This document shows, in pieces, positions 56,701 to 57,534 of a stretch of 64,000 nt of DNA. This DNA is from Escherichia coli. Its GTDB lineage: Bacteria; Pseudomonadota; Gammaproteobacteria; Enterobacterales; Enterobacteriaceae. The stretch lies in NCBI RefSeq assembly GCF_016026235.1, contig NZ_CP065613.1. The stretch is one strand, 5' to 3'. The translations under genes and the position numbers were made by a program. The notes beneath the pieces are model-generated. The model searched no databases, was not told the DNA's origin, and was given only the letters and a program-made list of their open reading frames with translations. The first letter of the stretch is position 1; each line of letters starts with the position of its first letter.

Positions 56701-56848
56701 GGAAAACCATTGCATCCTAACTACTACTTTAAATATATATGCATTGAGAGAGGCTCAATATCGTTCATTCAGAATTAACTCCGATACTATTAAACACAAT
56801 CCTCCAGGGTTTGACTATAATGCTCTATTAGAGCGAGGTGAGAAATGA
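56701..56848 (+). other. displaced 3-prime end of the RT-nitrilase gene (last ~48 codons plus stop) separated from the body by the IS insertion
   Basis: After removing the IS and one copy of the target duplication the RT frame continues ...VKGGENH|CILTTTLNIYALREAQYRSFRINSDTIKHNPPGFDYNALLERGEK to a TGA at 56846-56848. Confidence 0.65.
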
Positions 56849-57534
56849 GTAGCTTTTGGGAAGGTATTTTGTCATCAAGCATTTCATTTGCAATTATTGG
56901 ATTTGTTTGTAAGGCTTTTTTACAACATATTGATAAAAGAGAGTTAGAATCATTTAAAAATAAGTTGAAATATGAAAGTGAACAGAGAATTAAAGAGGAT
57001 GAACGTGCTTATAATTTTAAAAAAGCAAGAGATCTTGAAATCGGACGTTGGGGGTTAACATTACTTAGTGCTGCAAATGGTTTTTTAGGAAGGCTATGTT
57101 ATATTAAAGATCACAATGACCTATCGTCGGATCAATATTATATTGATAGTACAAGATTCTATCTATGCCAATATTTTTGCTGGGTACATCAATTCAGGAA
57201 AAATAGAGATTCATCTGTATTTTCACCAACTAATGATGAAATGTTAATAACTGAATTAATCAAAAATATTTCTATAGCCCTACGAGAGAACGATATTGGT
57301 TTTCCTTGTATTAGATCTCTTGAACAAAAGTATATAGGTGAAAGCCTTAGCATTGGTGCTGAATGTATGTCCTATAAAGATTTTATCGATTCTAAAGTAT
57401 TAGAAAACTATGCACCTCTAAATGATTTTGTTGAAGCAATTCTACAAAATAATAATAAAGATTATATCGATAAACTCGTTATCCCATTCCAAGATCTCAA
57501 GACCAGATTTGATGCGGCATTACAAAATAAATGA
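56845..57534 (+). CDS. uncharacterised membrane-anchored protein, translationally coupled to the RT-nitrilase gene (candidate partner/effector)
   Basis: 229 aa ORF; ATG at 56845 overlaps the reconstructed RT-nitrilase stop (ATGA); N-terminal hydrophobic helix SSISFAIIGFVCKAF; AT-rich like the RT gene; no family recognised. Confidence 0.6.
   Translation: MSSFWEGILSSSISFAIIGFVCKAFLQHIDKRELESFKNKLKYESEQRIKEDERAYNFKKARDLEIGRWGLTLLSAANGFLGRLCYIKDHNDLSSDQYYIDSTRFYLCQYFCWVHQFRKNRDSSVFSPTNDEMLITELIKNISIALRENDIGFPCIRSLEQKYIGESLSIGAECMSYKDFIDSKVLENYAPLNDFVEAILQNNNKDYIDKLVIPFQDLKTRFDAALQNK

Follow-up and report, generated by a model that had tools for sequence, protein, structure and literature searches.

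The window analysed here, a stretch of 64,000 nucleotides from Escherichia coli (contig NZ_CP065613.1), contains a tRNA-Leu gene (CAA; 51073–51157, plus strand, identified with ARAGORN) that serves as the integration site of a P4-like satellite, followed on the same strand by a P4-type tyrosine integrase of 422 aa (51309–52577; PHROG integrase, E 1e-60), which is annotated as a tyrosine-type recombinase/integrase in the intact reference copy described below. The cargo next to the integrase comprises a UG5-large RT-nitrilase pseudogene and, directly after it, an intact RTasTM gene. The pseudogene is present as a 5' part covering codons 1 to about 913 (52669–55405, plus strand) and a 3' tail with the last 46 or so codons (56710–56848, plus strand), which ends in a TGA overlapped by the next gene; between the two parts lies an insertion sequence of about 1.29 kb, the IS4-like ISEc60 (55406–56698, minus strand). 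The order of tRNA-Leu, integrase, RT and transmembrane (TM) gene is also annotated in NZ_CP062910. Beyond the cargo, two GC-rich hairpins (57562–57646, plus strand), the first of them terminator-like, belong to the P4-like backbone between cargo and psu, and the polarity suppression gene psu itself (57736–58279, minus strand; PHROG Psu-like, E 3e-96) has its 5' end cut by IS1.

The RTasTM gene (56845–57534, plus strand) starts with ATG and encodes a protein of 229 aa, the single-pass membrane partner (the ‘1TM’ protein) of the UG5-large system. Its ATG overlaps the TGA of the upstream frame as ATGA, within GAGAAATGAGT, and a Shine-Dalgarno-like AGGTGAG is found just 5' of it. The original prediction had placed this ORF in an ATGA overlap with the stop of a reconstructed RT-nitrilase gene, and the ORF list and the reconstruction presented below agree on both points. 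It had also ascribed to the ORF the AT-rich composition of the RT gene, and the values are indeed close, with a GC content of 30.3% for the 229-aa ORF and 31.3% for the RT gene against 49.3% for the window.

The upstream frame was interpreted with the PADLOC model RT_UG5-nitrilase (PDLC02995, E = 0), to which the ORF at 52669–53217 corresponds over positions 1–150 of 958 and the ORF at 53358–55409 over positions 231–913 of 958. Lesions were defined relative to the intact copy of the locus in E. coli Res13-Lact-EA06-22 (L001). The first is a one-base deletion at 53102 in a run of A (A6 and not A7), which is the sole gap relative to that copy and splits the RT gene into two ORFs. The second is the ISEc60 insertion, delimited by its junctions relative to the empty site of the intact copy and situated within codons of the nitrilase domain; it has inverted ends (CTGAGG...CCTCAG) and is flanked by a target duplication of 10–11 bases, GGGGAAAACCA, at 55395–55405 and 56699–56709. 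Its transposase matches the NCBIfam IS4 family transposase (E 1e-107), and 100% identical copies of the insertion carry the annotation ‘IS4-like element ISEc60 family transposase’. With the insertion sequence removed and one A put back at 53102, the reconstructed RT-nitrilase has 958 aa, ends in ...ALLERGEK on the overlapped TGA, and is two substitutions away from WP_000628823, the intact protein of E. coli Res13-Lact-EA06-22.

Because the RT-nitrilase gene has both a frameshift and an insertion sequence, the system is inactivated at this locus; judged from its sequence, the RT-nitrilase plus TM system of the window is almost certainly dead, and since its RT gene is broken no anti-phage activity is to be expected from this copy. 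A second strain, E. coli FDAARGOS_943, is 99.95–100% identical to the window over the aligned blocks, insertion sequences aside. The A6 frameshift is common to both, the RT gene of FDAARGOS_943 carries IS1A and not ISEc60, and in both strains an intact TM gene stands beside a dead RT gene. The TM gene of the window is identical in sequence to functional copies, and its intactness therefore says nothing about selection on the orphan gene.

The surrounding element has decayed as well. The cargo lies between the P4-type integrase at tRNA-Leu and psu, which is the position that defines the hotspot, and homology between the window and the intact copy stops at 58279, IS1 being located at about 58272–59047. 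In intact relatives, delta, an Icd-like gene and a primase-helicase gene lie beyond psu; in the window and in FDAARGOS_943 the IS1-cut psu is directly followed by genes for a MurR/RpiR regulator and a PTS component, and the remaining satellite is absent. By this gene order, the satellite in the window is a remnant truncated by IS1.

The strong hairpins that had been pointed out 3' of the ORF are present, the segment 57530–57660 folding with -56.5 kcal/mol (z = -2.8 relative to shuffled sequences), but they are not a property of the TM gene itself. The stem at 57571–57590 with its following TTTT scores as terminator-like and resembles an intrinsic terminator serving the cargo operon. Among 5426 complete E. 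coli genomes, 1080 have the sequence between about 57546 and psu at 93–100% identity but only 32 have the RT/TM cargo, and for this reason the hairpins are assigned to the satellite backbone and not to the RT/TM system. A structured RNA belonging to the system was considered and discarded, as no Rfam family matched anywhere in 52400–58400 and the region is common to some 1080 genomes with other cargos.

The protein encoded at 56845–57534 had been put forward as unrecognised and free of recognisable motifs, and only the second statement holds in part. Scans of Pfam and NCBIfam gave no match for the 229-aa protein, for 18 close homologues or for 23 remote homologues, and PHROGs gave none for the 229-aa protein; PADLOC, on the other hand, represents this very protein by two models of full length, RTasTM PDLC03013 (E 5.2e-164) and PDLC03799 (E 1.2e-122), both matched over positions 1–229 of 229. 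The protein is also 100% identical to WP_000094232, and has been known since 2022, when it appeared, identical in 229 of 229 residues, as protein 2 of plasmid pFR76 from E. coli E101 (Table S2 of Rousset et al. 2022, Cell Host Microbe, PMC9122126). In that survey of psu-int cargo in P4-like satellites, the system ‘RT-nitrilase + 1TM’ was cloned from a P4-like hotspot of E. coli E101 as pFR76 and was among those that conferred resistance to phage, in an assay performed at room temperature (Rousset et al. 2022, PMC9122126). The same Table S2 records ‘1 TM in protein 2’ (by Phobius), ‘RT belongs to UG5’ and ‘Similar to type I DRT’. In the classification of Mestre et al. 2022 (PMC9226505), UG5-large denotes an RT with a fused C-N hydrolase together with a TM protein of cluster 85 or 1858, a downstream TM gene being present in 31 of 299 UG5 loci and 33 of 175 UG1 loci.

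From these matches, the 229-aa ORF is thus identified as the gene for the membrane protein of the UG5-large ‘RT-nitrilase + 1TM’ system of anti-phage defence, and the suggestion of a two-gene RT defence system with this ORF as its second component was right, given its PADLOC assignment to RTasTM and its identity to protein 2 of an active system. The membrane protein is accordingly not new: it has a PADLOC entry, is covered by two papers of 2022 and belongs, as an identical protein, to a validated two-gene system. In the window, its gene is almost certainly the surviving half of a dead system.

The E101 system in pFR76 (UG5-large, TM cluster 1858; RT_UG5-nitrilase plus RTasTM in PADLOC) is therefore the nearest known relative, sharing with the window the TM protein, a near-identical RT (the reconstruction being 2 of 958 residues away from WP_000628823) and the site, a P4-like hotspot between int and psu at tRNA-Leu. 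It differs in that the RT gene of the window is a pseudogene, through a one-base deletion and ISEc60, and in that the satellite of the window is lost past psu in association with IS1. The layout is also that of DRT type 1 (UG1 Drt1a with or without Drt1b; Gao et al. 2020; Neville et al. 2026), in which the nitrilase forms the C-terminus of a large class 3 RT and some loci, a minority, have a small gene for a membrane protein behind it. The RT of the window is nevertheless of another clade, as Drt1a models reach E values of 6e-20 and 6e-10 over no more than about 90 residues of its RT core and RT_UG5-nitrilase covers it end to end with E = 0; it falls outside UG1 (Drt1a). With regard to Drt1b (cluster 85 of Mestre et al.), the 229-aa protein matches only RTasTM in PADLOC, in a comparison made at the level of PADLOC models.

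A third relative, DRT11 of Sinorhizobium meliloti RMO17, is likewise a UG5-large RT-nitrilase fusion and gives an abortive-infection-like protection at low multiplicity of infection, but it has no TM gene and needs only RT and nitrilase (bioRxiv 10.64898/2025.12.16.694600). As DRT11 defends without a TM gene, the TM partner is not universal to UG5-large. Hailong, formed by the HalB nucleotidyltransferase and the HalA membrane channel, is comparable in logic only: DNA of non-genomic origin made by the polymerase keeps the membrane effector inactive until phage enzymes remove that DNA, which has been considered a possible model for drt1b (Neville et al. 2026). No relation to Hailong was found in sequence or fold, HalA being absent from the PDB matches of a TM protein that is known here from its sequence and model.

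The pairing of RT and TM genes is conserved both within E. coli and beyond. The locus was matched in 32 of 5426 complete E. coli genomes, always on the chromosome and with at least 99% identity; both genes are present in 30 of these, the remaining two have the 5' part of the RT gene only, and the TM gene never occurs without the RT gene. In a search of 5.8 billion protein clusters the family of the 229-aa protein comprises 29 clusters, of which the named ones are all from Enterobacterales (46–100% identity), and the homologues span six genera of this order. They include proteins of Pantoea (46% identical, encoded next to smpB and not in a P4-like element), Pectobacterium (51%), Dickeya (62%) and Morganella (73%). 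In these four genera the TM gene is located directly 3' of an RT gene of 957–968 aa with an overlap of 4 or 8 bases, and in a metagenomic copy with 35% identity a gap of 19 bases separates the two. Across the six genera the overlap is mostly the 4-base one (ATGA) found in E. coli. The upstream proteins of the Pantoea and the 35%-identical metagenomic copies score as RT_UG5-nitrilase, Pantoea being the only divergent genus scanned. Pairwise identities of RT and TM proteins co-vary (r = 0.83, n = 15 pairs), and dN/dS of the TM gene is 0.05–0.25 in most pairs with unsaturated dS, one pair reaching 0.58.

The original prediction had proposed that gene-neighbourhood conservation with RT-nitrilase homologues be checked, and had named two observations that would speak against it: homologues that mostly lack a neighbouring RT, or related islands that do not conserve the ORF. 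What was found is the opposite: the TM gene directly follows the RT gene in Pantoea, Pectobacterium, Dickeya and Morganella, and the ORF is retained at the locus in E. coli. As read from the ATGA overlap and the gene order, the two genes are translationally coupled and inherited as a unit across the Enterobacterales.

The N-terminal transmembrane segment that had been anticipated appears in two kinds of analysis. The Kyte-Doolittle profile (19 residues) peaks at 1.94 over residues 8–26, the only other segment above 1.0 being 69–87 (1.03), and an AlphaFold2 model built with 18 homologues has a helix at residues 3–28. Lysine and arginine are absent from residues 1–7 and number six in residues 23–42, and because of this distribution the positive-inside rule would place the N-terminus outside and the remaining 200 or so residues in the cytoplasm. 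The model is all-alpha (pLDDT 87), with the TM helix followed by a helix of 59 residues (31–89), helices at 97–123 and 130–147, and further elements of a bundle. Invariant or nearly invariant residues of the TM helix are S10, S11, S12, G19, C22 and K23, and those polar residues of the bundle that are invariant include E65, R68, W69, N78, R83, D96, Y98, Q109, R118, R121, D122, R157, E160 and Q161.

Structure prediction followed by a fold search, which had also been recommended, was productive as to the model but yielded no informative fold match. Foldseek searches of the AlphaFold2 model against the PDB returned nothing below E 0.5, and the sequence profile matched in the PDB only Mdm2, at a chance level (E about 0.1). 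Against AFDB50, Foldseek matched mostly uncharacterised proteins, a few of them labelled DUF4760, ‘lysogenic protein’ or ‘Cthe_2314-like HEPN’, those labelled DUF4760 or ‘Cthe_2314-like HEPN’ having E values of 1e-5 to 5e-11. An assignment to HEPN or DUF4760 is not supported, as none of 41 members has a Pfam match and HEPN chains of the PDB score at E of about 1.6–1.8. The sole invariant histidine is H28, beside the TM helix, and the R-x(4-6)-H motif is not conserved; without profile support and without a conserved HEPN motif, these labels are taken as a lead only.

Recent biochemical work provides the frame for a mechanism. RT-nitrilases of UG5 and UG1 produce DNA adducts that are covalent and need no template, the nitrilase being a toxic effector that stays dormant until infection (Neville et al. 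2026; bioRxiv 10.64898/2025.12.16.694600). Purified DRT1, DRT5S and DRT5L perform template-free, protein-primed covalent DNA synthesis, and in DRT1 the adduct drives the formation of a dormant filament while the nitrilase is required for abortive infection (Neville et al. 2026). Roughly 18% of drt1 genes have drt1b beside them; in the system under study it was dispensable, and it has been speculated to have a role like that of HalA in Hailong (Neville et al. 2026). Since UG5-large and DRT1 systems can also defend when they have no TM gene, the TM protein is regarded as an accessory module and not as part of the core of the class.

The best inference for the 229-aa protein is an anchor whose cytoplasmic bundle links the membrane to an RT-nitrilase that makes DNA adducts. 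As modelled, it would cross the membrane once, leave a very short N-terminus in the periplasm and have a cytoplasmic helical bundle of about 200 residues (N-out/C-in). Its TM helix, rich in Ser and Gly and strongly conserved, suggests that it oligomerises within the membrane. The cytoplasmic bundle might bind the RT-nitrilase or the DNA adduct and so tether the complex to the membrane, and a phage-induced change in the RT-nitrilase complex could then be converted into a response at the membrane, such as growth arrest or abortive infection; this coupling is modelled, by analogy, on the suggestion made for drt1b and on HalA/HalB of Hailong, for which such a link has been demonstrated. Taken as a whole, the explanation that joins the identity as UG5-large partner, this anchoring and coupling mechanism and the inactivated locus is very probably correct.

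As to what the membrane protein does for the system, a role as killing effector and a role as anchor or regulator are given similar weight, each being possible but tentative, and an immunity function is unlikely. As killing effector, the protein would form a pore or channel as an oligomer; the DNA adduct made by the RT would keep it shut until enzymes of the phage stripped off or changed that adduct, and the nitrilase would take a regulatory or secondary position. The gating of this pore could be likened to that of Hailong or of SLATT-associated RT systems. Such a role agrees with the label ‘transmembrane effector’ given to the membrane protein by Rousset et al. 2022 (PMC9122126), which also notes that the TM proteins of known systems are presumed suicide effectors, with the Hailong analogy raised for drt1b by Neville et al. 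2026, with a conserved Ser/Gly/Cys face on the TM helix, and with the recurrence of the module in unrelated operons, as seen with portable effectors. It is harder to reconcile with a nitrilase domain that is kept and conserved in all partner RTs, that is required in DRT1 and that suffices together with the RT in DRT11. There is, moreover, only one TM helix, from which a pore is possible only as an oligomer, and pore-toxin structures match the model no better than designed four-helix bundles do. Two strains, that of the window and FDAARGOS_943, tolerate an intact TM gene without a functional RT, which argues weakly against a toxin restrained by the RT, expression having probably been lost too.

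A passive anchor or regulator, a reading of about the same modest probability, would place or stabilise the RT-nitrilase filament at the inner membrane near the site of phage DNA entry, or tune the activation threshold or the phage range, all toxicity residing in the nitrilase. Translational coupling implies co-assembly, and the many invariant polar residues of the bundle fit a binding surface, although this surface cannot be specific to the RT because remote homologues occur without any RT. The full activity of TM-less UG5-large and DRT1 systems indicates that the TM protein is dispensable class-wide, as does the minority of UG5 and UG1 loci in which its gene was counted by Mestre et al. 2022 (PMC9226505), and each context in which homologues occur offers another enzymatic effector candidate, either a nitrilase or DUF2779 with an SMC-like ATPase. 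Against a passive role stands the statement of Mestre et al. 2022 (PMC9226505) that the TM protein is ‘necessary’ in the E. coli system, for which the primary data were not located: it cites Rousset et al. 2022 (PMC9122126), in which neither a TM-gene deletion nor a toxicity test was found. The TM gene also diverges faster than the RT gene and has apparently been swapped at the junction, a behaviour that is commoner for a component under counter-selection by phage. In toxin-antitoxin operons a small, coupled downstream gene often encodes an antitoxin or immunity protein, and the present layout would suit an immunity or antitoxin-like factor that shields the host from the RT-nitrilase, an immunity-like role being one of those named in the original prediction; this is nonetheless improbable, since most UG5-large and DRT1 loci have no TM gene and are not reported to be toxic, the self-restraint of DRT1 comes from the DNA adduct and the filament and not from a second protein, and homologues are found in operons without RT or nitrilase.

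A profile search of 1.84 billion representative proteins extended the family to 49 relatives at E <= 0.001, and when 20 of these were scanned with PADLOC all of them were assigned to RTasTM, the only other matches being marginal ones to ZorA, LeoBC and DrmD (E 7.5e-4 to 0.008). The gene for one relative (P0034, E 2e-24) opens an operon that also encodes a DnaG-like primase, a UG6 RT and, as a separate protein, a nitrilase; the class 3 section of Mestre et al. 2022 (PMC9226505) does not mention an association of the TM module with UG6. Another (P0036), aligned by hhalign with probability 99.4 and 28% identity in 180 columns, is encoded at the head of four tightly packed genes that form an operon without RT; the other three encode an unknown protein of 569 aa, an LmuB-like ATPase (Lamassu, SMC-type) and a DUF2779 protein. 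The Pectobacterium and Dickeya systems share 89% identity in the RT but only 54% in the TM protein; at the nucleotide level, identity is 0.81–0.92 across almost the entire RT gene, drops to 0.77 in a 150-base interval placed over the junction, and is 0.59–0.69 within the TM gene.

The UG6 and non-RT contexts, together with the breakpoint at the junction, suggest that the TM protein is a portable, fast-changing module, as far as can be read from sequence comparison. A bolder proposal, to which only a low probability is given, is that the RTasTM fold is a portable, fast-evolving membrane module used by different defence systems that handle nucleic acids, namely UG5 RT-nitrilase, UG6 primase-RT-nitrilase and LmuB-like SMC ATPase/DUF2779 systems, and that it senses a common ligand, for instance single-stranded or protein-linked DNA, and responds with membrane damage. 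If this were true, RTasTM would represent a new family of membrane effectors gated by DNA, comparable to Hailong HalA and SLATT without being related to them.

For the annotation of the window, the outcome is that a ‘hypothetical protein’ becomes a named component of a validated anti-phage system; the strain itself is not to be credited with UG5 defence, because its system is a decayed remnant. The side observations on remote relatives and on the junction leave the already-known status of the protein unchanged. The remaining interest lies in the mechanism of the membrane partner and in its wider distribution: it is the component of the class 3 RT-nitrilase systems that mechanistic work has left aside, DRT1 and DRT11 having been studied without a TM protein, and its faster evolution relative to the RT, the apparent exchange at the junction and its UG6 and non-RT relatives are handles by which it may be studied.

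The RT-nitrilase gene of the window has been disrupted in more than one way. Within an A-run at 53095-53107, a deletion of a single base (A6 for A7) shifts the reading frame past codon ~145, and ISEc60, an IS4-like element flanked by a target duplication of 10-11 bases, lies inside the codons of the nitrilase domain (55395-56709). The A6 allele is also present in E. coli FDAARGOS_943, a genome in which 38 places match ISEc60, none of them at the site occupied in the window's RT gene. In that genome and in two others (OZ546925 and OZ546911), it is IS1A that is found within the RT gene in place of ISEc60. 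The frameshift, being common to the window and FDAARGOS_943, is therefore older than the differing IS insertions of the two strains, and the presence of ISEc60 in one locus and IS1A in the three others indicates that the RT locus has been struck by IS elements more than once.

The TM gene that follows (56845-57534) is thus left without an intact RT partner. A 90-codon ORF (56576-56848) starts within the right end of ISEc60, continues in frame through the terminal ~46 codons of the RT gene, and has its stop in the ATGA overlap with the TM gene. Should the ISEc60 end supply transcription, coupling could still allow translation of the orphan gene. Mestre 2022 (PMC9226505) calls the TM protein necessary in the E. 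coli system and cites Rousset 2022 (PMC9122126) for it; a deletion of the TM gene from this system was not found in the main text of that paper.

The junction between cargo and satellite backbone is located ~11 bases 3' of the TM stop codon. The hairpin-rich intergenic region that comes next (57546-57735) has been kept, at 93-100% identity, by 1080 of the 5426 complete genomes of E. coli and delimits the P4-like hotspot on its right-hand side. Little of the satellite is found beyond it: within 57736-59047, psu has its 5' end cut by IS1 (about 58272-59047), past which the window continues directly into a MurR/RpiR regulator and a PTS gene, and delta, sid, the primase gene and others, present in the intact locus of E. 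coli Res13-Lact-EA06-22, are absent.

In Morganella morganii GCA_051206315.1 (L005 3040-6004) the TM gene is intact and only a 341-aa product is called upstream, at a site where sister strains encode a 968-aa RT; this locus is probably another decayed copy. Between Pectobacterium and Dickeya the two genes differ in their conservation. Over nearly the whole RT gene, the nucleotide identity of Pectobacterium aquaticum (L003, ~7000) and Dickeya dadantii (L004, ~6000) is 0.81-0.92, but it falls to 0.59-0.69 from the RT/TM junction on, and the encoded proteins are 89% (RT) and 54% (TM) identical. Such a drop in the alignment points to recombination with a breakpoint at the junction or to a TM gene that evolves much faster.

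Remote relatives of RTasTM are found in other operons. One of them, P0034 (242 aa), is encoded by the first gene of a UG6 operon (L010 1393-7121, Logan ERR14940461 contig), together with a DnaG-like primase, the UG6 RT and a separate nitrilase; no TM partner of UG6 is mentioned where Mestre 2022 (PMC9226505) treats the class 3 systems. The distant relatives P0040 and P0046 (~310-320 aa) come from metagenomic contigs (L011 317-2322 and L013 114-2712) and are followed by unknown genes with products of 214 and 318 aa in L013, and in L011 by a 209-aa product and then a gene that the contig end truncates at 138 aa. PADLOC gave no match for the scanned neighbours, and with these loci the domain may have yet another context that is uncharacterised. 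P0036 is a clear remote homologue (hhalign probability 99.4), encoded at the head of an operon of four tightly packed genes adjoining sbcCD (L014 / L015 6001-12765, GCA_048983895.1 and a Logan contig). The other three genes code for an unknown protein of 569 aa, an LmuB-like SMC ATPase of 1034 aa and a DUF2779 protein, and no RT is encoded. This operon may be an undescribed defence operon sharing the membrane module.
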